DNA of 64,000 nt from a virus (Duplodnaviria; Caudoviricetes): the IMG/VR virus record IMGVR_UViG_3300046733_000629. One strand, written 5' to 3'. Position 1 is the first letter of the stretch; each line of letters starts with the position of its first letter. The notes beneath the pieces are model-generated. The model was not told the origin of the DNA, ran no database searches, and saw nothing but the letters and a program-made list of their open reading frames with translations. The translations under genes were made by a program, and so were the position numbers. Positions 1 through 64,000 of the stretch are shown piece after piece.

Positions 1-2
1 CA

Positions 3-3000
3 CTAAGATTAACAAGTACAGATACTAAAAGAACATTAACAGTAAGTGGATCTGCTCAAGCATTACTAGGATTAAATGCAAACTATAATGCAAGCACAAC
101 ACAGACTTCAATAGACACAACGCACCAACAAGCGGCAGTGTTAATACAAAATTCATTAACAACAGCAGGTATCACAGATGTAGCTGTTAACTATGTTAGT
201 AACCAAATCGTAATAACGTCTGAAGCAGATAGTATTGATATGGGTACAGGAACATTTAACAACATAGCTGGATTTGATAGCGGTGTAACTAATGCTAGAG
301 AAGCTGGTGTTGTAAACGAATTTAATGCAGTAAAAAATGGAACACCACACTTTAGTGAATTAACTTCAGACAAAGATCCAGTAATGTTTAATATATTAAT
401 TTCAGATGATAGTGCATTAGAAGTTGAAACTAAGGGAAATATAGCAACTAAGTTCAATGGTTGGAATGTATTACAAGTACAACCTAAAGCAGGAACTCCA
501 TTGTTTAGTAAAAGTACAGACGGTTCTGATTGTGGAATATGTGCAGGTACATTAAGTAGAGATGGCAATGATGCAGAAGTAACAACCAACGAAGCACATG
601 GCTTTGAAGTTGGCGATTACGTAATGCTAGTGAATACAGATACTACTCCACCTATTGATGGTATACACAAAGTTACTAAACTAGGAACAGACAACAAAGT
701 CTTTTACATAGATGAATTTATTGAAAAATGTGGTAATGCAGTTTGTGTACTACCACTAGTTACAACAAGATTTGCAAACGAAAATATAAGCACAAATGCG
801 TTAGCTGATCCAACTTGGAATTTACCAGCTAACACATTGATATGGGAAAAGTTTAACAATGCAACATTGGGAACATGGGTATATTCAGTATCAGGATCAA
901 ACAAAACATTTGTAAGATCAACTACACATAGACCAACTCAGTATGATGTTGATAATATTATAATTTACAATCAAGCAGACAATACTACAAAAGTTCAGTT
1001 AGAAGCATACGATCCTATGAGAAAGGTTCTCCCAGGTGTTGCTATGCAAAACTTAGAATATATAGAAGTTGCAGATAATGCAATTTATAATACAAGTACT
1101 GATGATTCTACAGCAACTGATCAGAATAATGCATGGGGCACTGAGCAAGTAGGAACAAGATGGTGGGATACAAGCAAAGTACGTTACTATGATTATGATC
1201 AAGGTACTGTAAGTTATAGAACAGACATGTGGGGCAAACTATATCCTGGCAGCGAAATTGTTGTGTGGGAATGGATCCAATCTACAGTGGCACCAGATGA
1301 TTATGCAGACGCAGTTAAGTCTAGCAAAGAAATGTTTGGAGTTATAGCAACAGGTGAAGCATATTCAGTTGTTGATAACAAAACTAATGAAACCGATTAC
1401 TATTATACTATTGATAAAATTTGGAACAGCTCTACTAACGCATACGACAATGTTTACTACTTCTGGGTTAAGAATAAAACTACAATAAACAATCAAAGAT
1501 CTTTATCAGCATTTGATGTTGCATCAATGATTGAAAATCCAACACAGTCTGGTATTGCTTGGTATGCAGTATTAGATAGCAAAACATTTATTATCGATAA
1601 CATCAACTATTACGTAGAAGATAAAAATACAGTATTACAAATTAACAAAGCGCCAGACAAAGTTAACTCACATAATGAGTGGACACTTATTGCTAAAGAC
1701 AAAGATATCATTCCAGGATATTATGTTAGAGGTATGAAATATAATTTAGCAGGACAAGATCTTAATGCTTCTAAAATTCCATATCAAACTTTACATAGAT
1801 TTAGTAAGTATGGAGATAACTTCGATGAAGGGCAAACATGGTTTAATAATTTATACGAAGCTAGAAGAAATACAGCTACAGCTATAAATGGATTACTAAA
1901 AGATATTTGGATTAATGATCAATATCATAATACTTGGAACCGAACAGCATTCAACAAATCATTTCCAACATACTTATGGAACTGGATTGATTATAAATTA
2001 AAAACATACACAGGCACATTTAATCATACAAAGATTATTCCTGGTGCATATGATTTACTTAACGTAGATAGAACATATCACAATGTAGTTAAAGTTGTTA
2101 AACGAGGTGCAAATAATATTGACAGAAGTGAACTATATGCATATAATAATGTTACTAACGTTTGGGAATTAGTTCTTAAAAAGAATGTTACAATTGAACT
2201 TAATGTTGATGCATTATGTCCTACCAAAGGTTGGGATGCAGATGCATGGGATTCAGATAGATTTGATCAAGCAAACGTTGGCGAGTATTGGATTAAATTA
2301 ATAACAGCATTGCATGAAGACTTGTTCATTGCACACAACAAATATAAGATGAACGAGCTGTTCTTTATAATTGTTGATCATGTACTAAGTTCTTTACCAC
2401 AAACAAACTGGATAAGAAAAACAACGTATGTTAAATTAGAACTTACAAATTCATTAGATTCAACAACTAAAAAGTACACAAGAGATAAAACAAATAACAT
2501 AATTGGTTATGTTGAAGATGTAAAACCATATCATACTAAGATAAGTTCTACAAACATACGACATACAACAGATACAGAGGAAGTGAAGTTAACAGTATCT
2601 GATAGTAATCAAATATTATTATCAGAGAAAGCATACGATACATTAGAACTTTCTCCAACAGAATTATTAAACATTATAGTTCAAACAAATGCATCAGGAA
2701 ATACACATGCAACTGATTCATTAACATTTGCACATATACAAGATAATGCAGGCACAGTTAACGCATATGCATTAACAGAAGCATTAGAAACAACATTAAC
2801 AGCAGAACTTAATGCAACAGATACAACAATAACAGTAGCAGATACTACAGCATTTGCTAACACAGGTATGTTGTATGTAAATGGAGAACTAATTGAATAT
2901 AGCAAAACTAACGCAACAACGTTAGCGATAACAAATCGTGCAGTATTAAATACATTTGCTAGAAACACAGCAATAGGAGATTCAGTAACACAAGTTAATA

Positions 3001-3131
3001 CAACTCAACTTACATATGCTAATCCACAAACGGCACAAGCATATAACACAACAGGTGAGTCGATATTAGCTAGCTCTACCTCTACACAAGCACAAGAGTT
3101 GCAAGCAGCAGGAAAGGGTATTGAATTATAA
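3..3131 (+). CDS. C-terminal part of a very large baseplate wedge-type virion protein (partial; begins left of the window)
   Basis: Frame is open from base 3 (LRLTSTDTKR...) through the track ORF 138..3131. Trp/Tyr-rich motifs (WWDTSKVRYYDYDQG, WGKLYPGSEIVVWEW) resemble jumbo-phage baseplate proteins from memory; followed by other structural genes. Confidence 0.7.
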   Translation, partial: LRLTSTDTKRTLTVSGSAQALLGLNANYNASTTQTSIDTTHQQAAVLIQNSLTTAGITDVAVNYVSNQIVITSEADSIDMGTGTFNNIAGFDSGVTNAREAGVVNEFNAVKNGTPHFSELTSDKDPVMFNILISDDSALEVETKGNIATKFNGWNVLQVQPKAGTPLFSKSTDGSDCGICAGTLSRDGNDAEVTTNEAHGFEVGDYVMLVNTDTTPPIDGIHKVTKLGTDNKVFYIDEFIEKCGNAVCVLPLVTTRFANENISTNALADPTWNLPANTLIWEKFNNATLGTWVYSVSGSNKTFVRSTTHRPTQYDVDNIIIYNQADNTTKVQLEAYDPMRKVLPGVAMQNLEYIEVADNAIYNTSTDDSTATDQNNAWGTEQVGTRWWDTSKVRYYDYDQGTVSYRTDMWGKLYPGSEIVVWEWIQSTVAPDDYADAVKSSKEMFGVIATGEAYSVVDNKTNETDYYYTIDKIWNSSTNAYDNVYYFWVKNKTTINNQRSLSAFDVASMIENPTQSGIAWYAVLDSKTFIIDNINYYVEDKNTVLQINKAPDKVNSHNEWTLIAKDKDIIPGYYVRGMKYNLAGQDLNASKIPYQTLHRFSKYGDNFDEGQTWFNNLYEARRNTATAINGLLKDIWINDQYHNTWNRTAFNKSFPTYLWNWIDYKLKTYTGTFNHTKIIPGAYDLLNVDRTYHNVVKVVKRGANNIDRSELYAYNNVTNVWELVLKKNVTIELNVDALCPTKGWDADAWDSDRFDQANVGEYWIKLITALHEDLFIAHNKYKMNELFFIIVDHVLSSLPQTNWIRKTTYVKLELTNSLDSTTKKYTRDKTNNIIGYVEDVKPYHTKISSTNIRHTTDTEEVKLTVSDSNQILLSEKAYDTLELSPTELLNIIVQTNASGNTHATDSLTFAHIQDNAGTVNAYALTEALETTLTAELNATDTTITVADTTAFANTGMLYVNGELIEYSKTNATTLAITNRAVLNTFARNTAIGDSVTQVNTTQLTYANPQTAQAYNTTGESILASSTSTQAQELQAAGKGIEL

Positions 3132-3150
3132 CACTACTTTATCATAAGGC

Positions 3151-15426: not shown

Positions 15427-15741
15427 TTATGCAGTTTCTGTAATAGTAACTGTATAACCTGCGGCTTCCATTGCTGCTTTTACTGTAGCGGTGTTAGCTG
15501 AATGAGTTTGGTATTCTGTCCAACCTGCATCAGTCCATACACGTGCAATAGTAATTGTGTCTGCATCTTTGTCGTATGTACGAGTAACAGCAACATTTCC
15601 TGCTGTTTCTGCTGCGCCTACGAATTCAAATACTGCTTGTTCTTCTTGATTCATAACATTTAATACTTCAATCATTGGAAGATGAAAATGTGCTGCTGCG
15701 TATTTGCTTTTGATTCCTGAGATTACAATTGTTTGGTTCAT
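15427..15741 (-). CDS. Small Ala/Thr-rich late protein (104 aa)
   Basis: Has its own ATAAATA (15766-15772, minus), an AAGGAGA SD and a terminator. Confidence 0.75.
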   Translation of the reverse strand: MNQTIVISGIKSKYAAAHFHLPMIEVLNVMNQEEQAVFEFVGAAETAGNVAVTRTYDKDADTITIARVWTDAGWTEYQTHSANTATVKAAMEAAGYTVTITETA

Positions 15742-23830: not shown

Positions 23831-23837
23831 TATGTAG

Positions 23838-45862: not shown

Positions 45863-45872
45863 AGAATAGAAT

Positions 45873-47372
45873 ATGGCAGATAGAAAAGACTTAACAACTA
45901 GTAATAAAGACTACAGTGTATTCTTACCGAGTATCAGTAGCTTTTATTCTAAGTTTATAGCACAAGCACAAATGCGTCCAGACTTTGTTAAGCCTGAACG
46001 TATGCCTGCAGGCTTTGAATATGGTATTGATGGCTTTGACTTTTTAAAGCCTAAAGACAATTACTATAATTACAAATGGGGTCTTTACTCTGCCGGGCAT
46101 GCTACTCGAGATACTGCTAAGAGTGATGTACAGGAACCAATGATTCAAAAGCGAGACAGGGAGAATAGTTTTATCCTTGGCGACAGTGGTGGGTTCCAGA
46201 TTGCTACAGGTGTAATCAAATGTGATTGGCCTAACTTTAAAACAGATGATGATCTGCGTAAGACAATTCTTAACTGGTTGGAACATACAGCAGATTATAG
46301 TATGGTATTAGATATTCCTACATTGGCTGCGGCACCACCGCTTAATGCTAAGACAGGATTAACTAATTGGGTTGATTGTTTAGAATATACAATGTTCAAT
46401 AATGATTACTTTGTTCGTAACAGACAAGGTAAAACTAAGTTCTTAAATGTATTACAAGGTAACAACGAGCAACAAGCAGATGATTGGTATGGTGCAGTTA
46501 AGCATTATCCATTTGAAGGTTGGGCTATGGCTGGTTACAATATGAAGCAATTACATCTTGCATTACGTAGACTTATTGTAATGCGTGATGAGAAGATGCT
46601 TGACCCAGGTAGAGATCTAATACACTACTTAGGTACAAGTAAATTAAATTGGTCGTGTATCTTTACTGCAATACAACGTAACATTAGAGAAACTATTAAT
46701 CCTAATATGATGGTAACATATGATGCCGCTAGTCCGTTTATTACAACGGCTAAAGGTCAAGCATATACACAACATGTACATAGGAACAATAAGTTTAGTT
46801 ATGTTATGGAACAGGCAGTAGATGATAAACGTTTCCAACACAGTGACATTCCTTTCCCATTTAATAGTCCAATTGGTGAACGTATGAATATGGGAGACTT
46901 ATGTTACATGGGTCCAGGTATGTTAAACAAACTTGGAAAAGAAGGCAAGACTAGTTGGGATAGTTTCTCATACTTCTTGTTAATGGCACACAATGTTTAT
47001 CAACACATTGAAGCATGTCAACGTGCTAATACACTTGCTGACATTGCAACAACCAGGTACAAGCCAAGTCACTTAGAATGGAATAAAGTGAAACCTGGAC
47101 AAAGTGAATTTGATTTATGGGTTCCACGTGATGTAATTTATGTTACAGAATTTATAAATCAATTATTTAAAAGTGAAACACCTATGCAAATGCTAGAAGA
47201 AGGTGAAGCAATGCTAACACACTTCAGTGGTATGAAAACTATTAAAACAACACAAGGTGCTTTTGATAGTTTATTTGACTCAGGTGATAATGCTCAAGAA
47301 GAAAGCGATGGCGAATTTACAGCTGAACAGGCTGAAGCGGCAGAAGATTTCTTAGAGCACCTAGAACAGTAA
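45873..47372 (+). CDS. dpdA: TGT-fold base-exchange enzyme, DpdA-like
   Basis: ILGDSGGFQ, MVLDIP, LNVLQG, GWAMAG, HYLGTS and YDAASP align in order with the TGT catalytic motifs; sits among folE/queD genes. Confidence 0.75.
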   Translation: MADRKDLTTSNKDYSVFLPSISSFYSKFIAQAQMRPDFVKPERMPAGFEYGIDGFDFLKPKDNYYNYKWGLYSAGHATRDTAKSDVQEPMIQKRDRENSFILGDSGGFQIATGVIKCDWPNFKTDDDLRKTILNWLEHTADYSMVLDIPTLAAAPPLNAKTGLTNWVDCLEYTMFNNDYFVRNRQGKTKFLNVLQGNNEQQADDWYGAVKHYPFEGWAMAGYNMKQLHLALRRLIVMRDEKMLDPGRDLIHYLGTSKLNWSCIFTAIQRNIRETINPNMMVTYDAASPFITTAKGQAYTQHVHRNNKFSYVMEQAVDDKRFQHSDIPFPFNSPIGERMNMGDLCYMGPGMLNKLGKEGKTSWDSFSYFLLMAHNVYQHIEACQRANTLADIATTRYKPSHLEWNKVKPGQSEFDLWVPRDVIYVTEFINQLFKSETPMQMLEEGEAMLTHFSGMKTIKTTQGAFDSLFDSGDNAQEESDGEFTAEQAEAAEDFLEHLEQ

Positions 47373-47385
47373 ATGGAGGAACGTT

Positions 47386-47589
47386 ATGGGAACAGGTACA
47401 ATTAATAGTAAAAAAAGATATCTAAATAACTTAACAACCAAACATAGAATGCTTGACAAAGAAATAAATGTGTTATATAATAATCACAGTAGCGATGATA
47501 TTGTTAAAGCAAAGAAACAAGAAAAGTTACAATTGAAAGAAGCAATTGTTGCTATGGAAAATGAACTAAATCAAATAAGTAAACACTAA
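47386..47589 (+). CDS. DUF465/YdcH-like coiled-coil protein
   Basis: L..KHRMLDKEI...KQEKLQLKEAI. Confidence 0.7.
   Translation: MGTGTINSKKRYLNNLTTKHRMLDKEINVLYNNHSSDDIVKAKKQEKLQLKEAIVAMENELNQISKH
47453..47481 (+). promoter_or_regulatory. Internal sigma70 promoter
   Basis: TTGACA-17 nt-TATAAT inside the DUF465 gene. Confidence 0.65.
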
Positions 47590-47604
47590 CTAGGTAATAT
47601 AGTA

Positions 47605-48135
47605 ATGAAAAGAGATTATACATCAAGCAATGACGTAACTGGCGTAACGTTCTTTGTCGGAACAGAAATTGAACATACTCCTACTTTTGGTATGAAAACA
47701 CTATTTGTAGTTGGTATGCAAGATATAGATGAAGTTAAAGAAATGGCAGAACGTAATGAAGTTGATGCTATCTATTTAGGTGCTAATCAAAGTTTTGAGA
47801 TTACTGGAGAACATGGAACTGATGCTGAACAAGAAGGTTGGGATGCATTAGTTAAGGGTTTGGTTACAGACTATTATGTAACATTAGACTTTGATTTAGA
47901 AGATGTTGATTGGATCCAAGAAAGTGGATACACTGAATATAATAATTTTATCCCAATGGTATCTGTTAAGGTTCCATACATTGAACAGTTGGGATATAAT
48001 ACTTGTATTAAATTTGATGATATTGATTTTAATGCAACAAATAAAGGAGTATGGACACACCGTCTACATTCTTTAATGGACCCTAAGAAGTTCACAAATT
48101 GGAACCAATACAAACAAGACGAAATAATTGAATAG
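47605..48135 (+). CDS. Hypothetical protein inside the deazaguanine operon (176 aa)
   Basis: FFVGTEIEHTP...TLFVVG...IYLGANQSF...KFDDIDF...GVWTH. Confidence 0.7.
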   Translation: MKRDYTSSNDVTGVTFFVGTEIEHTPTFGMKTLFVVGMQDIDEVKEMAERNEVDAIYLGANQSFEITGEHGTDAEQEGWDALVKGLVTDYYVTLDFDLEDVDWIQESGYTEYNNFIPMVSVKVPYIEQLGYNTCIKFDDIDFNATNKGVWTHRLHSLMDPKKFTNWNQYKQDEIIE

Positions 48136-48146
48136 GAGAATATACA

Positions 48147-48341
48147 ATGCCAAAGAAAATTCGTTTAATGGATGATGCAACAGCAACAGCAACGGCTGAA
48201 GCACCAGCAACTACAACAGAAGCAGGTGCAGGCTCTGTTGATAAACAAACAGTTGATGCACTAATGAAGTATCTTGAAGCTATTGATTGGAAGCTATGGG
48301 AAATGCTTAAAATCATGAAAGCCGATCAAGAAAGTAAGTAA
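48147..48341 (+). CDS. Small hypothetical protein
   Basis: AGGAG SD; LEAIDWKLWEM. Confidence 0.65.
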   Translation: MPKKIRLMDDATATATAEAPATTTEAGAGSVDKQTVDALMKYLEAIDWKLWEMLKIMKADQESK

Positions 48342-48342
48342 C

Positions 48343-48735
48343 ATGATTAATGTAACACAACGGCAAATCTGGGTAACATTTAGTAAGGAAGGTGTACACT
48401 TGTATCCTGCCGCTATTGATGATCCAGCACTAGCCACAGGTAAGTGGGATGACGTGTCATTCTTAGGATATGCACACAGACATATCTTTCACTTTAAAGT
48501 AGCAATTGATGTGTTCCATGATGACAGAGATATTGAATTTATTCAATTCAAACGTTGGTTGGAATCACTATATGCTAACAGCACATTAGAACTAAATCAT
48601 CGTAGTTGTGAGATGATAGCAGAGGAATTAGCACAGGAAATACACAACAAGTATCCTAATCGTTCAATTACAATTTCAGTCGCAGAGGATAATGAGAACG
48701 GTGCGACAATGACATTTAACCCAACAGAAGGATAA
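48343..48735 (+). CDS. queD: QueD-like T-fold protein (6-carboxy-tetrahydropterin synthase-like)
   Basis: HRHIFH metal-binding motif, DRDIEF, SCEMIA; 130 aa; near folE. Confidence 0.7.
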   Translation: MINVTQRQIWVTFSKEGVHLYPAAIDDPALATGKWDDVSFLGYAHRHIFHFKVAIDVFHDDRDIEFIQFKRWLESLYANSTLELNHRSCEMIAEELAQEIHNKYPNRSITISVAEDNENGATMTFNPTEG

Positions 48736-48739
48736 CGTA

Positions 48740-49099
48740 ATGTCTACAATTAAAAACGACAATAGCGTTTCAGTAAATTATTTTAAACTGGCTGGCTATT
48801 ATAACATCAATGATATTAAGTATGACCTACTTAAAATTATTGCTCCATATGATGGATACATGTATAATGAGAAAGAAACAGACAAACTCATTAGTGTATT
48901 TAACTCTTACTTGGGAGACCTTAAAAAGAGTTATAAAATCTTTAGTTATGATATTCAGACTACTGAAAAAGAAAATGCATTTACTTTTGATATTCAAATC
49001 AAAATGCAAAAAGACCGTAGCCCTAAGAAGCTAAAAATCCACGTAGGTAAACTTTGGTACGAAGTTAACAAAGCCAAAGAAGCGAGTGAGAATGCGTAA
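48740..49099 (+). CDS. Hypothetical protein
   Basis: Operon-packed 119-aa ORF. Confidence 0.6.
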   Translation: MSTIKNDNSVSVNYFKLAGYYNINDIKYDLLKIIAPYDGYMYNEKETDKLISVFNSYLGDLKKSYKIFSYDIQTTEKENAFTFDIQIKMQKDRSPKKLKIHVGKLWYEVNKAKEASENA

Positions 49100-50309
49100 G
49101 CTATTCTACATGGGCTTAGAACCTTATGAAGGTCGTTACACACTACAGTTACAAGACTGGAGTGAAGCGGCTTTTAAAAAACGTGGCATCGAATATGTAG
49201 TTGTTCCAGGCACTACAATCGATAATACTAAATCAATTAGTGTAGGGCAAGTACTAGATGCACATGGTAGATCATACTTTGGTATGAGTCAACTTATGAA
49301 CTTAGTACAAATGATGCGTAATGGTGAATGTAGCGGAGAAGATGTAGTATTCTTTGAAGATATGTTCCAACCTGGTATTGAAAGTTTACCATACATTATG
49401 TGTCAAGTTCCAGAAGAACAACGACCAAAGATTTATTTACGTTGTTTAGCACAAGCAGTAGACCCAGATGACTTTGTTCATGTATGGGGTATGAGCAAGT
49501 GGATGTCTTTATACGAACAAATGTGTAATGAGATTCCTAATGTACATATTCTTGCAACTAATGAAGAAATGGTTGCACATATGCGTATTGCTAATTGGAA
49601 TGCACCAATCTACAACATATCTGGTTTGAGCTTTGGCAAAGAAGAAGTTCAAAGTCGTGTTGATAATAAAATTAAGCCATGGGAAGAACGTAGCAACAGA
49701 GTAGTATTTGCGGCACGTTTTGATCAAGAGAAGCAACCAGACTTCTTTATGGATGTTATCGAAATGGTACACGAAAGAACTAAATCTTTTGATAGAGATG
49801 ACTTAACAGATAAAATTTATCCTGTAGAGTTTGCAGTACTAAGTGGAGGACCTTTACGTAGTAATAATCAAAAGTATTTAGATAGAGCTTTACAAATGGA
49901 AGCAGAAGGTAAACTTACAATTCTAAAAGATTTACAGAAGAATGATTACTATAATGTAGTTAATGATTCTAAAGTAATGTTTAATTGTGCATTGCAAGAC
50001 TGGGTATCTAATACAGTAAGTGAAGCAGATGCATTAGGTTGTAACGTAGTTTATCCTGCATACAGAAGTTTTCCAGAAACGTTTGCAAACGATCATACTA
50101 GACTTTACATGCCATGGAGTAAAGAAGATGCAGTAAGTAAAATCTTAGCAGGACTTGAAGCACCTTCTAACAACATGGGTAAGATTAGTGATTGGACAAA
50201 CGGAACTATCGATCGTATGATTGATATTATGGAAGGCAGTTATAAACATAACCAATGGTTACGTAGTGGTAACAGATATCGTGATCACGTAGCTAAGGAG
50301 AAATATTAA
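49092..50309 (+). CDS. GT-B glycosyltransferase (GT4-like)
   Basis: VVFAARFDQEKQPDFF and SNTVSEADALGCNVVYP. Confidence 0.75.
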   Translation: MRKLFYMGLEPYEGRYTLQLQDWSEAAFKKRGIEYVVVPGTTIDNTKSISVGQVLDAHGRSYFGMSQLMNLVQMMRNGECSGEDVVFFEDMFQPGIESLPYIMCQVPEEQRPKIYLRCLAQAVDPDDFVHVWGMSKWMSLYEQMCNEIPNVHILATNEEMVAHMRIANWNAPIYNISGLSFGKEEVQSRVDNKIKPWEERSNRVVFAARFDQEKQPDFFMDVIEMVHERTKSFDRDDLTDKIYPVEFAVLSGGPLRSNNQKYLDRALQMEAEGKLTILKDLQKNDYYNVVNDSKVMFNCALQDWVSNTVSEADALGCNVVYPAYRSFPETFANDHTRLYMPWSKEDAVSKILAGLEAPSNNMGKISDWTNGTIDRMIDIMEGSYKHNQWLRSGNRYRDHVAKEKY

Positions 50310-50310
50310 T

Positions 50311-51273
50311 ATGAAAGTACTAGTAACAGGAGCAGGTGGATATATTGGTTCACAAACATGTAAGACATTATATAACAAAGGATATCATGTCGTAGGTGTT
50401 GATAGAAACAGGATTAAACATAGCTATTGTAAAACTGTTTATTCAGGAAATTACAGTGACTACGCCGTGCAAGCGTTACTACTTGATATTGATTGCGTAG
50501 TTCATATTGGAGCAACCAGTTTAGTTGGACCTAGTGTTTTAGACCCTAGTAAGTACTATAACAACAATGTTGCAAGTACACTTGAACTACTTGATGCATG
50601 TAAAAATCAAGGCGTTAATCGTTTTGTTTTTGCAAGCAGTGCGGCAACTTATGGTGAGCCAGAGGAAGATGTATGTAATGAAAAAGAAATACATGAACCT
50701 GTAAACCCATATGGTTGGAGCAAACGTATGACTGAGATTATGTTAAAAGATTATGCAACTGCATATGGAATTAACAGTGTCAGTTTACGTTTCTTTAACG
50801 TAGCTGGTGCAGACTTAGATGGTGAGTTTGGACAAGAAAAAGCGGCTACACATATTATTGCTAAACTTATGGAAATGACTATGGCTGGCAAAGACTTTAC
50901 ATTAAATGGAGATAGTTTTAATACACCAGACGGAACTTGTGTTAGAGATTATGTACATGTAGATGATGTAGCACGTGGTATAGCTATGGCAGTAGACTTC
51001 ACACAATTTAAAAATGATGCTTATGTATTTAACTTAGGCAACGGTGAAGGATACAGTAACATGGATATTGTAAAAGCAGTTGAAGATCATACACCATTAA
51101 AACCTGTTATTCATACAGGACCTGCTAGAGCAGGAGATCCTGCAAAGCTAGTAGCAGATAGTGAACTAGCAAATAAACTATTGCAATGGAAGCCAAACTA
51201 TGGACTTGACACAATAGTTAAGACAGCATACAATTATTATTTAAAAACAAATAAAACGACATCCTCGTCGTAA
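50311..51273 (+). CDS. galE: UDP-glucose 4-epimerase
   Basis: TGAGGYIG, SSAATYG, YGWSK (YxxxK), LRFFNVAGA, DGTCVRDYVHV. Confidence 0.9.
   Translation: MKVLVTGAGGYIGSQTCKTLYNKGYHVVGVDRNRIKHSYCKTVYSGNYSDYAVQALLLDIDCVVHIGATSLVGPSVLDPSKYYNNNVASTLELLDACKNQGVNRFVFASSAATYGEPEEDVCNEKEIHEPVNPYGWSKRMTEIMLKDYATAYGINSVSLRFFNVAGADLDGEFGQEKAATHIIAKLMEMTMAGKDFTLNGDSFNTPDGTCVRDYVHVDDVARGIAMAVDFTQFKNDAYVFNLGNGEGYSNMDIVKAVEDHTPLKPVIHTGPARAGDPAKLVADSELANKLLQWKPNYGLDTIVKTAYNYYLKTNKTTSSS
51206..51234 (+). promoter_or_regulatory. Internal sigma70 promoter upstream of folE
   Basis: TTGACA-17 nt-TACAAT. Confidence 0.55.
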
Positions 51274-51287
51274 ACTCGGAGAACAAA

Positions 51288-51977
51288 ATGAGTAAAAGTA
51301 AAGAAATTAAGGCCCGTTTGCAGGACGCAAACATTCGTCATTGGGCAGGCGACAACATTTCAGAAGTCTTACAACAAGGCGACAAAGAAGCACTAATTGA
51401 AGATGCCACAGTAGCATTTGAAAACGTTCTTGATACATTATTAATTGACAGACATAACGATCCTAATTCAATGGGTACAGCAAGGCGCCTAGCTAAAATG
51501 TACTACAATGAAATTATGGCAGGACGTTATGATCCTGCTCCTGGTGCAACAGCATTTCCTAATGACAGCGATGATCGATATGAAGGTATGCTAGTAGTAC
51601 GTAGTGAACTTAAAAGCATGTGTTCGCATCACCATCAGCCAGTAGCAGGTATTGCATACATTGGTATTATTGCCGCAGACAAACTAATTGGTTTAAGCAA
51701 GTACACACGTATTGCACAATGGTGTTCTAGACGTGGTACACTACAAGAAGAACTTGCTAACGACATTGTACGTGAAATTCAAAAAGCAACAGATGCAAAA
51801 CACTTAGGTGTATATATTCAAGCAACACATGGTTGTTGTGAGAACAGAGGTATTATGGCAACTAGCAGTCTTACACAGACAACTGTACTAAAAGGTGCAT
51901 TCAAAGATGATCCTGGTACAAAGAAAGAGTTTATGGATAACATTAAACTACAACAATCATATGCGAGTGGAAAATAA
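51288..51977 (+). CDS. folE: GTP cyclohydrolase I
   Basis: TARRLAKMY, SMCSHHHQP, IGLSKYTRIAQW..RRGTLQE, HGCCENRG. Confidence 0.95.
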   Translation: MSKSKEIKARLQDANIRHWAGDNISEVLQQGDKEALIEDATVAFENVLDTLLIDRHNDPNSMGTARRLAKMYYNEIMAGRYDPAPGATAFPNDSDDRYEGMLVVRSELKSMCSHHHQPVAGIAYIGIIAADKLIGLSKYTRIAQWCSRRGTLQEELANDIVREIQKATDAKHLGVYIQATHGCCENRGIMATSSLTQTTVLKGAFKDDPGTKKEFMDNIKLQQSYASGK

Positions 51978-51978
51978 A

Positions 51979-52482
51979 ATGGTGAACAAAGTATATTATA
52001 CATGGAAAGATATTGAACATATGGTTAACACTGTTAACAATCTTATGTTTGCAGACAATTGGCGTCCTGACTACATTGTAGGAATGACACGTGGTGGATT
52101 AGTACCAGCAGTCATTATGTCTAACATTACAGGAATTAAAATGCATGCGTTAGATGTGCGTTTCCGTGATGGAGACTCTCAAGAATCAAATTCTTGGATG
52201 GCTGAAGATGCACATTCAGGTAAAAACATTCTTGTGTTTGATGACATTAATGATAGTGGTAAAACTATGCAATGGGTTAAAGATGATTGGCCATCGGGTT
52301 GTTATCCAGGTAGTGCTTGGGATAATGTTTGGGGTAATAATGTTAGGTTTGCCTCATTACTTGACAACCAAGCAAGTGACTTTGGCGAAGTAGATTACAC
52401 AGCTATGGAAATTAATAAAATGGAAAAGGATGTATGGGTAGTATTTCCTTGGGAAGGTGAGCGAGATTATGGAAACTTCTGA
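51979..52482 (+). CDS. Type I phosphoribosyltransferase (Gpt/Hpt-like)
   Basis: IVGMTRGGLVPA, ILVFDDINDSGKT, WVVFPWE. Confidence 0.88.
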   Translation: MVNKVYYTWKDIEHMVNTVNNLMFADNWRPDYIVGMTRGGLVPAVIMSNITGIKMHALDVRFRDGDSQESNSWMAEDAHSGKNILVFDDINDSGKTMQWVKDDWPSGCYPGSAWDNVWGNNVRFASLLDNQASDFGEVDYTAMEINKMEKDVWVVFPWEGERDYGNF

Positions 52483-52777
52483 TGATACTATAACTATAAC
52501 ATCTGCTCCAGACTATTCTCATTCATATTATACTGTAGCTCCATCTAGTATTACAATAGATATAGATGAACCTGAGATTGTAATTGGAGATATGACTGCT
52601 ACAGAACTTTGTAAAACAATTAAAAATCAACGGTTAGAGATTGAAGCCCTTACTGATATATTAAATGAAATAGTTGATTCAGGTAACTTAAATATTCCTA
52701 TGAATATAAAAGAAAGAGTATCTCAAAAACAATTCCTTGAGATACTATCAGGAGACTCAAACAATGAAGACATTTAA
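52457..52777 (+). CDS. Hypothetical protein
   Basis: Overlaps both neighbours; start uncertain. Confidence 0.55.
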   Translation: MSEIMETSDDTITITSAPDYSHSYYTVAPSSITIDIDEPEIVIGDMTATELCKTIKNQRLEIEALTDILNEIVDSGNLNIPMNIKERVSQKQFLEILSGDSNNEDI

Positions 52778-53333
52778 AATTGAAATGTATGGATATGGTG
52801 GTGAGATAGTACTAGGTACTATTACCAAAGAAGCATACGAACATTGGGCAGACAGAGACGAAGAAGATGAAGGAAGACATCATCATTTATTTTGGGACCC
52901 ATATGAAGAACAAGAGGGCAATGATGTTATTGATGATGACGATCCACGTTTTTTAGGCATGTGGCATGAGATAGATGATATTACACATACACATGGTGCA
53001 TTTTATGATCGTTGTACAGTTGAAGTAATTGATGAAGATGATAAAACAATCTGGCAAACTGAAGATCCTGAAATAGAATCTACTACAATTGAAGATCCAG
53101 ATGATCAGCCAGCAGGATATTATTTTAAAGGTTGGAGCTCTGAAAAGGGGCATTTCTTTAGTGCAGAGTTTGATGCAGAGGAATTTGACCCTAAAAAGCT
53201 GAAGTTTTTTGCTACAAATGTTGATTGTGATGTAGTAATTGATAGTGTAGAATATGACGGAAATACGCTAGATAATGACGGTGGAGACACCATAGGTAAG
53301 TCCTTAGGCCAGGAATTTTACGAAAATCTATAA
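52737..53333 (+). CDS. Highly acidic hypothetical protein
   Basis: AGGAG SD favours a start near 52764 (MKTFKIEMYGYGGE). Confidence 0.65.
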   Translation: MRYYQETQTMKTFKIEMYGYGGEIVLGTITKEAYEHWADRDEEDEGRHHHLFWDPYEEQEGNDVIDDDDPRFLGMWHEIDDITHTHGAFYDRCTVEVIDEDDKTIWQTEDPEIESTTIEDPDDQPAGYYFKGWSSEKGHFFSAEFDAEEFDPKKLKFFATNVDCDVVIDSVEYDGNTLDNDGGDTIGKSLGQEFYENL

Positions 53334-53336
53334 AAA

Positions 53337-53379
53337 CCAAGACATTTCGGTTGACAAATCATAGTATTCTTGTTATTAT
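53337..53379 (+). promoter_or_regulatory. Sigma70 promoter preceded by CCAAGACATTTCGG
   Basis: TTGACA (53351-53356)-17 nt-TATTAT with extended TGn. Confidence 0.8.
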
Positions 53380-53419
53380 ATACAAGTAAGTTAAATTAAT
53401 AACAAGTCAGGAGACTATA

Positions 53420-56110
53420 ATGAAGAAACTATTAGCAACATTTATTATTGCTATATCACTTTCAACAAGTGCATATGCTGGCAATTTTAAAAGCTATTAT
53501 GATTATGCAAGTAATCTAAATAGCGGGCTACAAATTAGCTTTTCTACGTCAATGATTAATAATTATACACGTAGTAACAAAATGTACAAAAACTTGATTG
53601 ACAAGTACGATCATATGTTTTCAAAGTACGGCTGGTTTCAAACTATGAAAGAACGTTATGCGTTCCAACTATCCGAGATCAATAAATTTCAACAATTAAT
53701 TAACGTTAAAGAAGCACAAGTAACTCTTGTAAACACAACTTATAAGGTTACAACTGGTGTTGTTGTAAGGCGTGGTGCAACTACTCTTACAAACGAATCT
53801 ACAAAAGTTGTTGAAGAAACATCTGGCAATATAGTTAAAGAGTTTGCAGTAGTTACTAAAGTTTATAGTACTCCTATTAGAAAAGATTATTGGGAAAATA
53901 CTAATACTATTACTCATTACAGTGATGGTACTACAGGTAGTTCTAATAGTAACAAAATTACAAAAACTACGAACGAAGTTGAAACTGATTCTAAAGTTGA
54001 AAGAGAACTTATCAGAGAATATGCTTTAGTCATACCAGAAGAAGATAACAAGGTAGTTGACAATGCAGACATTAAAATTCTAACTGAGGCAGAATACTTA
54101 GCTAGAAATGATGTTACTCTGTTTGAAACAGAAACATATAATGAAGCAGTTTGGAATATGAACAGTAGAATTAATGAATGGTATACTGTTAATATTTTAT
54201 CTAAAAATTATGCTAACCACTTAGAACAAATTGGTGCACCAGCCGCTTGGGCTAGAGGATACACAGGTAAAGGTAGTACAATTGCTATACTTGATACTGG
54301 TATAGACATGGACCATACTGAGTTTGAAGGCAAGATTAAAGGTGCAGAATGTTTTACAGGACTATGTAAAAATGGACATGAAACAATACATGACGCAAAT
54401 AGATTCTCACACGGAACACATGTTGCAAGTATTGCGGCAGGTAACTTAGACGGCAACGGTACAACAGGTGTTGCACCAGATGCAGACTTGTTAATTGCTA
54501 AGACAGCATGGAACTTTGGATCGTTTGATTTTAGTGTAGCAGATGAAGCAATTGCTTGGGCCGTAAACAACGGAGCAGATGTAATTAACATCAGTGCTAA
54601 CTATATGTTTGATAGAACATACATCAATAGTATAGAAGAGATTTCTCCGGGTATGTATAAGTCAACAGATACAAGAGGACGTAATGGTAAAACATATGAC
54701 AAGTTTGGATATGCGGCACTAGCAGACAGCGATCTTTATTACAAAGATATTGTTGAATCAATGAAAGGTCACGAAGCGGTACTAGTATTGTCAGCAGGTA
54801 ACCAAGGAACAGATGTTGCAGGTCAGCCTAGTTTTATTGCACTAGACGAAGAAGTTGGTGATAGGGTTTTGATTGTTGGTAACTATGATGCACGTCAAGG
54901 TGACATATATAGGCTTTCTAATAAAGCAGGTACTATGTGTTTTGAGGTTAATGTAGATGGTAGTTGTGCAACAAACAAACGAATCAGTGATAGCTTTATA
55001 CTTGCACCAGGTAGGTATGTAGCAGGTGCTGATGCAAATGGTGAGTATAGAACTAACAGTGGAACGTCACAGTCGGCTCCTATGGTATCAGGTGCAGTTG
55101 CAATTGTACATCAAATGTGGCCACATATGACAGGTGCTAACTTAACTAAACTATTGTTAAATACTGCTAATAAGGATCTTCCTAACTATGATGAGAATGT
55201 ACATGGTCAAGGATTGTTAGACTTAGATGCGGCAACACTTCCACAAGGTGCTATTGGTCTTCCTACTACAGGTAGAGCAGAAGGTGGTACTATAAATATT
55301 GGAAGCAGTGGTACTATTGCAATGTCAGGTAATGCTACAATTTCAGCATTGTCACAAACAATGGTAATTGATGATTACGATAGGGATTATTACTTTGATG
55401 CTAACACTATGGTACAAATTAATGACACAAGAACTGCAAGTGCTACATCGTCAGCATTGTATGGATTTACTCCAGACTACTATATTGGGTACAATGGTGG
55501 TACTATTATCCCAATGACAAATGGTGGTACACATATTGCACTTAATGAAGATAACAATAATGTAAGTATTGTACAAAAGTATGAAGGGTTTACATTGGGT
55601 CTTGTTAATGAACAAGGTAGCTTCTTAGGTAACATTGCTGATAGTGAACTTATGAAAGTTACCGGAGCAGAAACTGCATACTTAGGTTACAGTTTTGATA
55701 ACGGTAATGTGTTTGGTAGTGCAACACTAGGAGCAACTAAACTAGATGTAGACAGTAGTTCAATGCTTAAGAGTGCAGACATTATGATGTCTAACAGTGC
55801 AACACTAGGTATTAAGCAAACTGTAGACAGTAGCACATTTGGATTTGTAGCAAGTGTACCAGTTAGTATTACTAGCGGTGATGCACACTTTGATGTTCCA
55901 TCAAGTATAAGTAGTGATGGAAATATTAACAATTCAGAAATGAGTAGTTCGATGAAAGCTGATAAAAGAGAAGTTGACTTTGGAATGTTTTATAACTTCA
56001 ATCCAACAGATACAACTGCATTTACGGCTAACGTAGAACTTAGAACTAATTACGCAGGTACAAGCGAAGATACAGTAAGTGCAGGCGTTACATATAGGAT
56101 AATGTTTTAA
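53420..56110 (+). CDS. Exported S8 subtilisin-like protease with a beta-rich C-terminus (autotransporter-like)
   Basis: Signal peptide; ILDTG, HGTHVAS, SAGN, GTSQSAP; terminal Phe. Confidence 0.85.
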   Translation: MKKLLATFIIAISLSTSAYAGNFKSYYDYASNLNSGLQISFSTSMINNYTRSNKMYKNLIDKYDHMFSKYGWFQTMKERYAFQLSEINKFQQLINVKEAQVTLVNTTYKVTTGVVVRRGATTLTNESTKVVEETSGNIVKEFAVVTKVYSTPIRKDYWENTNTITHYSDGTTGSSNSNKITKTTNEVETDSKVERELIREYALVIPEEDNKVVDNADIKILTEAEYLARNDVTLFETETYNEAVWNMNSRINEWYTVNILSKNYANHLEQIGAPAAWARGYTGKGSTIAILDTGIDMDHTEFEGKIKGAECFTGLCKNGHETIHDANRFSHGTHVASIAAGNLDGNGTTGVAPDADLLIAKTAWNFGSFDFSVADEAIAWAVNNGADVINISANYMFDRTYINSIEEISPGMYKSTDTRGRNGKTYDKFGYAALADSDLYYKDIVESMKGHEAVLVLSAGNQGTDVAGQPSFIALDEEVGDRVLIVGNYDARQGDIYRLSNKAGTMCFEVNVDGSCATNKRISDSFILAPGRYVAGADANGEYRTNSGTSQSAPMVSGAVAIVHQMWPHMTGANLTKLLLNTANKDLPNYDENVHGQGLLDLDAATLPQGAIGLPTTGRAEGGTINIGSSGTIAMSGNATISALSQTMVIDDYDRDYYFDANTMVQINDTRTASATSSALYGFTPDYYIGYNGGTIIPMTNGGTHIALNEDNNNVSIVQKYEGFTLGLVNEQGSFLGNIADSELMKVTGAETAYLGYSFDNGNVFGSATLGATKLDVDSSSMLKSADIMMSNSATLGIKQTVDSSTFGFVASVPVSITSGDAHFDVPSSISSDGNINNSEMSSSMKADKREVDFGMFYNFNPTDTTAFTANVELRTNYAGTSEDTVSAGVTYRIMF

Positions 56111-57802: not shown

Positions 57803-58480
57803 ATGTTGCCAACTAACTCTCTTGAAATTGAACTTACTACAAAATGTACACTAGGTTGTCCATCATGTCCACGTAATAATCCATATGATAGCCGTAAGCT
57901 ATGGGATGTAGGACACATTGACACTGACCTTGTTCTAAGATTAGCAGATGAAGTAGAACAAGATAATACTAGAGTATTGTTTGTAGGTTGTTACGGAGAT
58001 CCAATATATCATCCAGACTTTATAAATATTATGAAGGTGTATGCAGAAAAGAAAATAAGTGTATTAGTGCATACCAATGCATCATTTAAAACTGATAAAT
58101 GGTGGAAAGAACTTGTTTGGACAATACCGTGGAATAATAAAATTGAATTCGAGTTTAGTGTAGATGGCTTAGAAGATACAAATCATTTATATAGAATAAA
58201 CTCAAAGTGGAAAAGTATCCAAACTGGAATGCAAGAGCTTTCTAAATATATTAAACAACAAAATGATCCTGCTAAAATACCACAAGTAAGTTGGAAGTTC
58301 TTAGTATTTCCATACAACGAACATCAAGTTAACGAAGCACAAGAACTATGTAATGACTATGGTTTTAAATTTTATGCGGCAAAGAGCGAAAGAACAATAG
58401 CAAGTTATAGAGTAGAAAACAATTACATATATGATTGGAAAGGTAAAGGAGATTTATCGTGGAAAATAAAAGAGAACTAA
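57803..58480 (+). CDS. Radical SAM protein lacking its SPASM domain
   Basis: IELTTKCTLGCPSCPR, GCYGDPIYHP, FSVDGL; paralogue of 23165..23830. Confidence 0.87.
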   Translation: MLPTNSLEIELTTKCTLGCPSCPRNNPYDSRKLWDVGHIDTDLVLRLADEVEQDNTRVLFVGCYGDPIYHPDFINIMKVYAEKKISVLVHTNASFKTDKWWKELVWTIPWNNKIEFEFSVDGLEDTNHLYRINSKWKSIQTGMQELSKYIKQQNDPAKIPQVSWKFLVFPYNEHQVNEAQELCNDYGFKFYAAKSERTIASYRVENNYIYDWKGKGDLSWKIKEN

Positions 58481-58811: not shown

Positions 58812-60194
58812 ATGACAAAAGCAATAGTCGTGCTTGCAGACTCAAAACAAGCAAAGAAACTTGGTGCACCAGTTAAACGTGCATCAGCAAACTTAGAAAA
58901 AAGTGTAGACATATCGTTTGCACATGAAGAATATGATTACATTACTGTAATTGAAACTAAACCTAAAACAGCAAACGATGCTCGTGAACTAGGTGGAGAT
59001 ATGTTTAGCAAGTATAAAAAAATAGCTACTACATTAGAACTTGATGATGCATTAGGTTTTAGTAATGACATTCTCGAAGGAATTGACTTAGCAGGATACA
59101 CATTTAATAAGTACAAAACAGATTCAAAAGATATTAAATTAGATTCTGTAACTATTAATAGCAAAAGCATTGATGAAGTTAAACAAAGTATTTCAGGTAG
59201 TATCAATTTTGCACGTGACTTAGTATCAGAACCAGGTAACGTATTATATCCACAAACATATGCGGCACGTATTCAACGTAACTTATCACCAACTGGTATA
59301 ACAGTAAAACTATATCATGAATCACAACTAAAAGAAATGGGACTTAACTTATTATTAAGTGTAGGACAAGGTAGTGAGAAAGATAGTTATGTAGTTGTTA
59401 TGGAACACATGAACGGCAAAGAAGGCGAACAGCCAATTGCATTAGTAGGTAAAGGTGTTACATTTGATACAGGTGGTATTAGTTTGAAACCAGGACGCAA
59501 CATGGGCGATATGAAATACGACATGGGCGGTAGTGCCGCAGTAGTAGGTGCTATGCATGCAATTGGTACACAAAAGATTAAACGTAACGTAGTAGGTATT
59601 GTAGGCTTAGTAGAGAACATGCCAGACGGTAAAGCAATTAAGCCAGGTGATGTAGTTACTTCACTTAGTGGACAGACTGTAGAAAATTTAAATACAGATG
59701 CAGAAGGTAGACTTGTACTTGCAGATATATTAACATATGTACAAAAAGAATATAACCCATATGTGATAGTTGATCTAGCAACACTAACAGGTGCAATTGT
59801 AGCGGCTCTTGGTCATGAAATGGCAGGACTATTTACTAACTCAAGTGATTTAGAATTTGCAATTGATGATGCAGGTAAAGTATCTGGAGAAGGATTCTAT
59901 CGTATGCCAATGGGTTCTAACTATGCAAAAATGATTAAATCTCCAATTGCAGATATGCAAAACATTGGCGGACCATATGCAGGATCAACAACAGCCGCAG
60001 AGTTTTTATACAAATTTGTAGATAACAAAACAGCATGGGCTCACTTAGATATTGCAGGTATGGCTTGGGAAGAAAAAGGTAAACCAGTTACTCCTAAAGG
60101 TGCGGCAGGATTTGGTGTACGTACATTATTTAATCTTGTTAACAGTGTACCTAATAAACAATCGCTTGAAATTGATAAGGATATGGATTACTAA
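58812..60194 (+). CDS. pepA: Leucyl aminopeptidase (M17)
   Basis: VGKGVTFDTGG, MKYDMGG, NTDAEGRLVLAD, WAHLDIAG. Confidence 0.93.
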   Translation: MTKAIVVLADSKQAKKLGAPVKRASANLEKSVDISFAHEEYDYITVIETKPKTANDARELGGDMFSKYKKIATTLELDDALGFSNDILEGIDLAGYTFNKYKTDSKDIKLDSVTINSKSIDEVKQSISGSINFARDLVSEPGNVLYPQTYAARIQRNLSPTGITVKLYHESQLKEMGLNLLLSVGQGSEKDSYVVVMEHMNGKEGEQPIALVGKGVTFDTGGISLKPGRNMGDMKYDMGGSAAVVGAMHAIGTQKIKRNVVGIVGLVENMPDGKAIKPGDVVTSLSGQTVENLNTDAEGRLVLADILTYVQKEYNPYVIVDLATLTGAIVAALGHEMAGLFTNSSDLEFAIDDAGKVSGEGFYRMPMGSNYAKMIKSPIADMQNIGGPYAGSTTAAEFLYKFVDNKTAWAHLDIAGMAWEEKGKPVTPKGAAGFGVRTLFNLVNSVPNKQSLEIDKDMDY

Positions 60195-62516: not shown

Positions 62517-62720
62517 ATGCAAGATCCAAAAATTAAAAAACTAGTAACTACATTTGAATCTGATTTAGATAAAATTAATAAATCATGGAATGCATTGCAA
62601 AAGTCAGGTGTGTATGTACGTATGGAAATACGAGGCAATCATACATACGATGATCCAAAATGGCTTGAAGCAAATCAAATTACAGAAGAAGTGAGTTACA
62701 AGAAAAGTATTAAAGAATGA
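62517..62720 (+). CDS. Small hypothetical protein
   Basis: ATGA overlap with sufE. Confidence 0.6.
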   Translation: MQDPKIKKLVTTFESDLDKINKSWNALQKSGVYVRMEIRGNHTYDDPKWLEANQITEEVSYKKSIKE

Positions 62721-63109
62721 AAATAAACAAATGGTCAGAAGATCTAGGTTTATTAGAAGGTCAAGAAAGACTAATGTATCTGGTTGACTTGGCAAGAAAT
62801 GCAACAACATTACCTAAAGAACTACGTACAGACGACAGACTAATAGGCGGGTGTATGAGTAAGATATGGGTAGATGTTGGCGTAAAAGAAAATATAGTGC
62901 ATGTATATTATGATAGTGACGCTATGATTACAAAAGGAATTACAAGCATAGTTTGTGATTGCTTTTCAGACATGCCAGTTGAAGATGCAAAAAAGATAAA
63001 GTCCGAGGACTTCGAAGGATTAGGTATACAGCAGTTACTGACTCCTCAAAGGCGAAATGGCCTAGGAAGTTTAATTGGAACAATTATAGATAAGGTAAGC
63101 AGAATATGA
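62717..63109 (+). CDS. sufE: SufE-family sulfur acceptor
   Basis: IGGCMSKIW, DSDAMITKG, LLTPQRRNGL. Confidence 0.88.
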   Translation: MKINKWSEDLGLLEGQERLMYLVDLARNATTLPKELRTDDRLIGGCMSKIWVDVGVKENIVHVYYDSDAMITKGITSIVCDCFSDMPVEDAKKIKSEDFEGLGIQQLLTPQRRNGLGSLIGTIIDKVSRI

Positions 63110-64000
63110 AGCAAGGCAATTATATTTTTACAAGCGAAAGTGTAAGTAGAGGGCACCCAGATAAGGTGTCAGATCAAATTAGTGATGCACTAGTTGATGC
63201 AGGACTAAAAAACGGCGACGAGACAACTCGTGTAGCAGTTGAAACACTTGTAACCACTAACCATGTAACGGTAGCGGGTGAGGTAAAAAACTTTAACGTA
63301 AGCAATGATGAGGTAAAACAAATCATTCGTGATAAAGTTAAAGAGATTGGATATGAACAAGATGGATTCCATTGGGATAATTTAAACATCTATAACGAAA
63401 TTCATTCCCAATCAGGAGATATTGGATTAGGAACAGACAACTTTGGTGCAGGTGACCAAGGTATTATGTTTGGTTATGCATGCACAGATAACGATGCAAT
63501 GCTACCAGCACCTATTCATTACTCACATGAAATTCTAAAACGTTTAGATGCAATGAGAGCAGAAGGATATGAATTTTTATTACCAGATGCTAAGTCACAA
63601 GTAAGTGTTCAATACGATGGCGGTAAGGTAAAACGTATTGATCAAATTGTTGTGTCACATCAACACAAAGAAGGATTTCAACATAGCATTAAGGCACCTA
63701 TTAAAGATGCCGCAGAAGAAGTATTAGGAGATTTAATTGATAAAGAAACTGTATGGCATATCAATCCTACTGGTAATTTTGTTATTGGTGGACCCGATGG
63801 AGACACAGGTCTCACAGGCAGAAAGATTATTGTTGATACTTATGGTGGTTTTGCTCCCCATGGCGGCGGCGCATTTAGTGGAAAAGATCCTACCAAAGTA
63901 GACCGTTCAGCGGCATATATGGCACGTTGGTTAGCAAAGAATGTAGTAGCAGATAACATGGCTGATTGGTGTAGTATTCAACTTAGCTATGCAATTGGTG
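63106..64000 (+). CDS. metK: S-adenosylmethionine synthetase (partial; not in the ORF track)
   Basis: Translated by hand: FTSESVSRGHPDKVSDQISDA, GAGDQG, DAKSQV, GGPDGDTGLTGRKIIVDTYGG, GKDPTKVDRS. Confidence 0.97.
   Translation, partial: MKQGNYIFTSESVSRGHPDKVSDQISDALVDAGLKNGDETTRVAVETLVTTNHVTVAGEVKNFNVSNDEVKQIIRDKVKEIGYEQDGFHWDNLNIYNEIHSQSGDIGLGTDNFGAGDQGIMFGYACTDNDAMLPAPIHYSHEILKRLDAMRAEGYEFLLPDAKSQVSVQYDGGKVKRIDQIVVSHQHKEGFQHSIKAPIKDAAEEVLGDLIDKETVWHINPTGNFVIGGPDGDTGLTGRKIIVDTYGGFAPHGGGAFSGKDPTKVDRSAAYMARWLAKNVVADNMADWCSIQLSYAIG

Follow-up and report, generated by a model that had tools for sequence, protein, structure and literature searches.

Within the 64,000-nucleotide stretch of DNA analysed here (IMG/VR record IMGVR_UViG_3300046733_000629, hereafter the window), which comes from an uncultured marine jumbo phage, the five-base word GCWGC is the most depleted of its length and GCSGC the most enriched. 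The loss of GCWGC is a synonymous recoding at the DNA level under a pressure that differs between lineages, not an effect of translation, and for at least ten recognition sequences avoided in the window and its relatives survival follows one rule, by which a G-purine step within the site, or starting at the base just before it, exempts that site. The pattern is probably explained by a guanine modification directed at GA and GG, combined with the purging of sites beyond its reach.

The window has 35.1% G+C and about 93 open reading frames (ORFs), mostly on the plus strand. Relatives were gathered through a DpdA-like protein encoded in the window (80 loci), and the 14 long contigs among them (G001–G014) make up, together with the window, the 15 lineages compared below. 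Genomes of the family have 33–39% G+C, and the relative contigs, up to 198 kb long and rated 14–55% complete, imply genomes of about 350 kb. Expected counts are derived from within-gene codon shuffles that keep amino acids and codons (2000 rounds), from dinucleotide-preserving shuffles and from Markov models of orders 2 and 3. A site is termed G-flanked when a G stands directly 5′ of it on at least one strand, unflanked GCWGC being HGCWGCD, and covered when a purine (A or G) comes directly after any of its own Gs or after a G at position −1.

Synonymous recoding of GCWGC

GCWGC occurs 25 times in the window (11 GCAGC and 14 GCTGC) and GCSGC 79 times (47 GCGGC and 32 GCCGC), whereas dinucleotide shuffles yield 64.6 ± 7.6 and 13.6 ± 4.0, respectively, with a maximum of 25 for GCSGC; under Markov orders 2 and 3, likewise, no five-mer is more depleted than GCWGC or more enriched than GCSGC. 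With codons and amino acids preserved, the genes hold 26 GCWGC sites against 83.7 ± 4.5 expected and 78 GCSGC sites against 22.7 ± 3.9, and the words form the extremes (z −12.9 and +14.2) of the 507 strand-symmetric five-mers. The original prediction, a by-eye reading of the letters, had put the counts at roughly 20 and 60, close to the exact ones, and each of its 12 example coordinates marks a GCSGC site within one base; it had proposed the codon-preserving comparison, whose ratios lie far from one, and an equal depletion of unrelated five-mers, which would have spoken against it, is not seen.

The recoding is most apparent at Ala-Ala pairs, of which 69 of 91 (76%) have GCG or GCC as the first codon. 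As had also been predicted, this runs against the usual choice, since Ala is written GCG or GCC in 10% of cases when the next codon begins with a base other than G and in 7% before codons of the type G[^C]N. The effect therefore requires the full five-base word. Most in-gene sites of the window lie in the Ala-Ala frame (22 of 26 for GCWGC, 69 of 78 for GCSGC), and two genes illustrate complete recoding:

30035–31093, plus strand: fully recoded gene; five Ala-Ala pairs, all GCG-GCN, and no GCWGC
58812–60194, plus strand: M17 aminopeptidase, a fully recoded core gene; five GCS-GCN pairs and no GCWGC

A concentration in one frame would be expected if a translational codon-pair preference acted at Ala-Ala or if the GCSGC motif itself were positively selected, and off-frame depletion in the window alone is indeed weak (4 GCWGC vs 9.8 expected). 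This reading is nevertheless already contradicted by the results and retains next to no probability. Off-frame GCWGC is strongly depleted in the relatives, with 2 sites vs 19.6 expected in G001, 0 vs 9.4 in G002 and 6 vs 36 in G004, and unflanked GCWGC is absent from all three frames of G010 (0 vs 144.6, 0 vs 24.6 and 0 vs 16.9). G013 and G014, which have the same codon usage, show no effect, the next two bases must be GC as a G alone is insufficient, and the flank rule described below has no translational meaning. GCSGC, for its part, is not enriched off-frame in the window or the relatives despite many synonymous opportunities, and being flat outside the Ala-Ala frame it is a by-product of the purge rather than a selected motif.

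The avoidance also varies among relatives of the same codon usage, from no GCWGC at all in the 99.5 kb of G002 to counts near expectation in G011, G013 and G014, and its state differs between sister branches of the DpdA-like protein tree. At conserved Ala-Ala positions where the non-avoiders have W, the window has S in 19 of 23 cases relative to G013 and in 10 of 16 relative to G014, while at 24 of 26 positions it makes the same choice as the avoider G001. Depletion in all frames and variation between close relatives together argue for site avoidance acting on DNA and against translation or selection for GCSGC. Two other routes to the pattern were rejected by reasoning: deamination of methylated GCWGC would yield GTWGC and an amino-acid change instead of synonymous GCSGC, and Vsr-type repair would leave GCWGC untouched.

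GCWGC is not the only missing word, and the sets differ between lineages. G005 has 4 GTAC sites vs 334 expected, G009 lacks ACGT-type sites and TGATCA, and G002 lacks RCATGY and TTCGAA; AAGCTT, GCATGC, GCTAGC and TAGCTA are missing in several lineages, and AGCGCT, TGCGCA, GTGCAC and ACGCGT in most. Such lineage-specific sets of missing palindromes are the classical signature of restriction pressure, and GCWGC is itself both avoided here and a known restriction specificity, that of TseI and ApeKI (PMC3643589, PMC8557920). Systems with this specificity occur in aquatic bacteria, as shown by Chloroflexi genomes of freshwater and marine origin in which GCWGC is methylated (PMC3643589, PMC8557920, PMC6329791, PMC8919816). 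The link to the Chloroflexi systems is to the shared word, not to a phage host. Chloroflexi hosts are expected to be much more GC-rich than these phages. No member of the C5 methyltransferase family PF00145 was found in any of 15 relative contigs, rated 14–55% complete, and there is thus no sign of a phage 5-methylcytosine methylase for GCWGC.

One relative contains a local exception in word usage. On the minus strand of G003 (23063–24751; L033:3063–4751), about seven small genes in tandem encode Ala/Asp-rich peptides that begin with MTKLEEL and continue in runs of A, D, R and W, and the array is written almost wholly with GCT, which gives 47 GCTGC in 1.7 kb of a genome that otherwise mildly avoids the word. 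The acidic, repetitive make-up of the peptides recalls DNA-mimic anti-restriction proteins.

Neighbouring bases and the survival of sites

Survival of GCWGC depends on the adjacent base. In the window, 12 of 26 surviving sites have a 5′ G on one strand vs 24% expected (p = 0.02), and in G004 the enrichment reaches p = 1e-7, with flat half-site controls. The separation is sharper still in three other relatives, where the observed and expected numbers are 93/113 for G-flanked and 0/183 for unflanked sites in G010, 44/84 and 0/129 in G007, and 63/47 and 1/79 in G008.

The same dependence is found at unrelated words. In the six genomes of the window clade (612 kb), all 117 GCGC sites are GGCGC on at least one strand, although about 198 unflanked ones are expected, and in the window the G-flanked sites number 11 vs 18.3 expected and the unflanked ones 0 vs 23.3 (p = 0.00012). 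AAGCTT is present five times in the window with a G flank (8.4 expected) and never without (10.8 expected), whereas AGCGCT, TGCGCA and ACGCGT are absent from it altogether. The surviving sites of the window are:

GCGC, 11 sites, all GGCGC on one strand or both, with HGCGCD absent: 1650, 15237, 15614, 18082, 18508, 19695, 30966, 45639, 51485, 60815, 63869
AAGCTT, 5 sites, each preceded by G on one strand: 8002, 27108, 30418, 31047, 61491
GTGCAC, 3 sites, all GGTGCAC: 11888, 54234, 58864

An unbiased scan of all palindromic cores with all four flank bases identifies a 5′ G as exempting for AAGCTT, ACGT and GTGCAC, and a 3′ A after the terminal G as exempting for CTTAAG, CAGCTG and CGWCG, while CTGCAG and CGCG persist only with A or G after the terminal G on both strands. 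An A flank never exempts a site, and methylation at RGCY, a motif reported from marine viruses, was rejected as the protecting mark on this ground. In G006–G010, covered GCATGC is at expectation (39 vs 37.5) and uncovered GCATGC almost missing (1 vs 35.3). All of these contexts are fitted by the single G-purine rule, with GCWGC, GCGC, GCATGC, AAGCTT, ACGT, GTGCAC, CTTAAG, CAGCTG, CTGCAG and CGCG as its cores. Over the pooled lineage-site pairs under clear selection, covered sites number 1362 vs 2178 expected and uncovered ones 17 vs 2254, a contrast in which only the survival of the covered sites is informative, as the pairs were picked by their low uncovered counts. Among lineage-site pairs, avoidance is seen in 3 of 296 for palindromes that contain GA or GG and in 47 of 466 for those without; counted by sites, the proportions are 3 of 31 and 17 of 34 (Fisher p = 0.0005). 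The rule also accounts for the two words treated above, since GCWGC has no coverable G and GCGGC always has one, and the suggestion in the original prediction that GCSGC may be a modifiable site is consistent with GA and GG as exempting contexts, GCGGC being always covered on one strand.

The flank dependence could in principle reside in the enzymes, each of which would recognise a longer degenerate site such as HGCWGCD or HGCGCD, and the phage DNA would then carry no modification. Some restriction enzymes are sensitive to flanking sequence, and the exemption is enzyme-specific in the data in so far as GTAC and AGCGCT are not exempted. This is very unlikely, however, as a single G-purine edge rule would have to be common to ten or more unrelated cores and avoidance hardly ever affects palindromes with GA or GG inside them, to which is added the experimental resistance of the DNA of a cultured phage, PA5oct, at GA/GG sites. 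The recurrence of the same edge rule across at least ten unrelated recognition sequences instead points to a property of the phage DNA.

The distribution of the residual GCWGC sites is uneven, and was described correctly by the original prediction, which had them clustered in the distal tail fibre and in accessory islands, with about one after 43.2 kb: 23 of the 25 lie before 36.2 kb, and the sole site beyond 43.2 kb is at 46326. Comparing W with S before and after 36.5 kb gives a Fisher p of 0.0013 for a split that was chosen post hoc. The two parts of the window and the sites in them are:

1–36200: variable part; tail-fibre-like and accessory genes, most of which lack orthologues in relatives according to the synteny table
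Unflanked GCWGC in the variable part, 13 sites: 3105, 6927, 7269, 13718, 15473, 15611, 15692, 15695, 18537, 25898, 32092, 32179, 36166
15427–15741, minus strand: small accessory ORF with four unflanked GCTGC, the densest cluster of remnants
36201–64000: core region, syntenic with all relatives; GCWGC only at 43143 and 46326, both GGCTGC

The variable part carries a further 10 G-flanked GCWGC. In genes ending by 36200 the unflanked sites number 13 vs 37.9 expected and the G-flanked ones 10 vs 15.3; in core genes the respective values are 1 vs 25.6 and 2 vs 4.3, the single unflanked site being 36166, which falls in the gene at 36087–37235 and is tallied with the core genes in these counts. Beyond 36166 there is no unflanked GCWGC where about 25 are expected. 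The prediction that leftover sites mark recently acquired genes therefore stands for the 13 sites that lack a G flank, none of which lies beyond 36166 and which all fall in the variable region, and fails for the 12 G-flanked ones, which belong to the tolerated class. Several relative contigs (the ends of G001, G002, G004 and G005) stop within a few kilobases of the equivalent of window positions 22–36 kb, as would be expected if metagenome assemblies broke at a hypervariable region.

Restriction-site avoidance is well known in phages, as in Staphylococcus phage K, which lacks GATC, and in Bacillus phages without GGCC. The present case shares with these the strong or total absence of a restriction target, its synonymous removal and the differing sets among lineages, but differs in that avoidance depends on the neighbouring base and that GA/GG palindromes are almost never avoided. 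No description of such a neighbour rule was found in the literature searched, where restriction-site avoidance and deazaguanine came together only in a passing mention, and conditional avoidance tied to a putative GA/GG guanine modification appears to be undescribed.

Candidate modification genes and the nature of the mark

Two genes of the window are candidates for making a guanine mark, the second lying 4 kb downstream of the first:

45873–47372, plus strand: TGT-fold (DpdA-like) protein, 499 amino acids; candidate enzyme for inserting a modified guanine into DNA
51288–51977, plus strand: GTP cyclohydrolase I (FolE), first step of 7-deazaguanine synthesis (PF01227, 129.7 bits)

The sequence of the DpdA-like protein has no match in Pfam, NCBIfam or PDB searches. 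Its AlphaFold2 model (mean predicted local distance difference test score 85.9) retrieves TGT structures in Foldseek with an E value of 1e-7, probability 1.00 and modest TM-scores of 0.42/0.56; the restriction of the match to the fold counts against the proposed function. The NCBIfam FolE models match the window protein at E 4e-39, below the model cut-offs.

The closest cultured homologue of the DpdA-like protein, with 38% identity over 99% of the length, is found in Pseudomonas phage PA5oct (MK797984.1, Wroclawvirus), where QueE is its neighbour and FolE and QueD are encoded at other places. PA5oct DNA is resistant at sites containing GA or GG, and its authors conclude that G is modified in a GA and/or GG motif (PMC12191111). 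Although host and habitat differ, PA5oct resembles the window family not only in these genes but also in its surviving sites, which are mostly G-purine covered: the observed and expected numbers for covered and uncovered sites, respectively, are 2/10.6 and 0/11.2 for GTGCAC, 9/18 and 5/57 for AGTACT, 15/33 and 1/12 for CAGCTG, and 4/3 and 0/7 for ACGCGT. PA5oct avoids neither GCWGC nor GCGC, so that the flank rule for those two cores is uninformative there. In the same genome (L174–L179), GGCC (131 vs 257 expected) and GGSCC (19 vs 83) are depleted despite the reported modification, and the mark hence does not make GG sites selectively neutral in PA5oct.

A second point of comparison is Escherichia phage CAjan, in which DpdA and preQ0 synthesis modify GA and GGC with dPreQ0, blocking HaeIII and EcoRV while GC, GT and GGT sites remain cuttable (Kot et al. 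2020, PMC7544227). CAjan and the window have in common a TGT-family enzyme, FolE and, presumably, a motif-specific guanine modification, but the window protein shares only the fold, without detectable sequence similarity, and the motif suggested for the window takes in GGT, as GGTGCAC is exempt. The original prediction had referred to the CAjan motif; the exempting contexts fit GA plus GG better than GA plus GGC.

The rule can equally be written for the paired base, as a C after a pyrimidine (YC), and the mark could then be a cytosine modification made by an amino-methyltransferase-like protein instead of an exchange of guanine. A candidate for such an enzyme is a 372-residue ORF with the motif FSSPPYF and a sub-threshold N6_N4_Mtase match (19.7 bits), conserved in G001, G003, G004, G005 and G013, and marine myovirus-like genomes often carry signals of the N4-methylcytosine type (PMC8919816). 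The window yielded no copy of this ORF, however, and G013 possesses it but has no avoidance to judge from; moreover, GA and GG(C) are documented motifs of phage guanine modification, whereas we know of no described DNA methyltransferase with YC dinucleotide specificity. A cytosine mark thus seems improbable. In G001 the candidate amino-methyltransferase ORF with its SPPY motif lies at L022:14261–15379 on the minus strand, and in G003 and G005 it adjoins metK/sufE, the genes that end the window.

The favoured explanation, a GA/GG-directed guanine modification with purging of what it leaves exposed, would operate as follows. The phage would be under heavy site-specific DNA cleavage, most likely by Type II restriction enzymes of its hosts, and one of the targets would be GCWGC, the site of TseI and ApeKI, which as double-stranded DNA also contains the GCAGC recognised by BbvI. 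A mark on guanine, most likely a deazaguanine placed at GA and GG steps by the candidate TGT-fold enzyme and supplied by a 7-deazaguanine pathway that includes FolE, would be the cause of sparing; the G-purine context takes in about 44% of all Gs of the window. Covered sites would then need no avoidance, while those with all Gs in GC or GT context would be purged, GCWGC being removed by synonymous change to GCG-GCN or GCC-GCN. In an AT-rich genome GCWGC lies mostly at Ala-Ala (GCA or GCT followed by GCN), and the CpG-bearing GCSGC consequently becomes the most enriched five-mer. A GCWGC-directed defence that the modification does not cover, as originally predicted, receives indirect support from the all-frame depletion, the variation among lineages, the other avoided palindromes and the sparing of G-flanked sites.

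Several observations weigh against this explanation. Of the precursor pathway only FolE was recovered in the window, where neither QueD nor QueC is matched by Pfam or NCBIfam and the radical S-adenosylmethionine (SAM) gene at 57803–58480 is not assigned to QueE by either; the flank effect on GCWGC in the window, at p = 0.02, is modest on its own; and CAjan, taken as a positive control, shows no conditional footprint, its GA/GG palindromes being as depleted as others. Certain sites also disobey the rule: a G flank does not save AGCGCT, ACATGT, AGTACT or GTAC from being purged, while TGATCA in G009, CGATCG in one lineage and TTCGAA/TCGA in G002 are avoided despite an internal GA. The non-palindromic TCGGCA is absent from G014 (L164–L168; 0 vs 20 expected) in spite of its GG, as ATCGGC nearly is (2 vs 18), and TCGGCA may be part of a Type I, IIS or III target. 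In G002 and G012 even G-flanked GCWGC is purged while GCGC still obeys the rule, which suggests that enzymes differ in their sensitivity to a mark on one strand; a GCNGC-type enzyme as sole agent in these two lineages was rejected, as GCSGC, covered on one strand, abounds there. Doubly flanked GGCWGCC is depleted in G010 (L139–L148) and G007 (L122–L129), with 1 site vs about 21 expected in the two combined. Finally, uncovered RCGCGY, RCTTAAGY, RCAGCTGY, RCTGCAGY and HGTGCACD, as well as AGCGCT in any context, are absent from almost all of the 15 lineages, and such a near-universal absence is odd for strain-specific host enzymes.

Related to the double-flank pattern, G004 (L035–L041) has no doubly flanked TCGWCGA vs 5 expected. 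The depletion is limited to five-base sites, of which singly flanked ones are not depleted, and the even-length GGCGCC is not affected. The family-wide set of avoided words stands in contrast to GTAC, ACGT, RCATGY and GCWGC, whose avoidance is lineage-specific.

If the pressure were carried along by the phage itself, the loss of several uncovered sites from almost every one of the 15 lineages would be accounted for, and the avoided sites could accordingly be targets of nucleases encoded by the phages themselves, comparable to the chloroviruses that degrade host DNA with their own restriction-modification genes, with modification and avoidance serving self-protection. The family is gene-rich and has many unassigned ORFs. 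On the other hand, the states of GCWGC, GCGC, GTAC, ACGT, AAGCTT and RCATGY differ between close relatives as if hosts change, and no nuclease gene was identified in contigs that are 14–55% complete, so that gene presence cannot be matched to avoidance. As a full account of the avoidance, phage-encoded nucleases are therefore unlikely, and cleavage by host enzymes remains the preferred source of the pressure, although some of the family-wide specificities may belong to phage-borne nucleases.

Genomic setting and significance

The gene content of the window includes many radical SAM enzymes, a carbamoyltransferase, an S8 peptidase, a thymidine kinase, a glycosyltransferase and an epimerase besides FolE. 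Among the host-like auxiliary genes are a TctA-family transporter (28493–29944), the M17 leucyl aminopeptidase (58812–60194), SufE (62717–63109) and SAM synthetase (63106–63999). A/T runs are scarce relative to the codon shuffle (AAAAA/TTTTT 278 vs 474 expected, AAAAAA/TTTTTT 70 vs 167), and TCGA and other CpG words are likewise low. No near-identical DNA record of the window was found among deposited phages, while its stretch 44001–54000 is present in 20 sequencing runs of seawater or marine origin, which belong to 17 studies.

For the marine jumbo phage family as a whole, there is about an even chance that anti-restriction is two-tiered, with G-purine modification as the first layer and selection against uncoverable sites as the second. 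Site avoidance and deazaguanine DNA are each known, but their interlock is not described in the literature searched. If the explanation is correct, the pattern of spared and purged sites yields the modification motif without culture or chemistry, together with a list of the nuclease specificities, 15 or more, met by these uncultured phages, and hypermodification motifs and restriction specificities could be derived computationally for uncultured viruses, with PA5oct as a tractable cultured proxy for the neighbour rule. It would also describe a widespread group of marine phages, in whose hosts Type II-like nucleases must be unusually plentiful.

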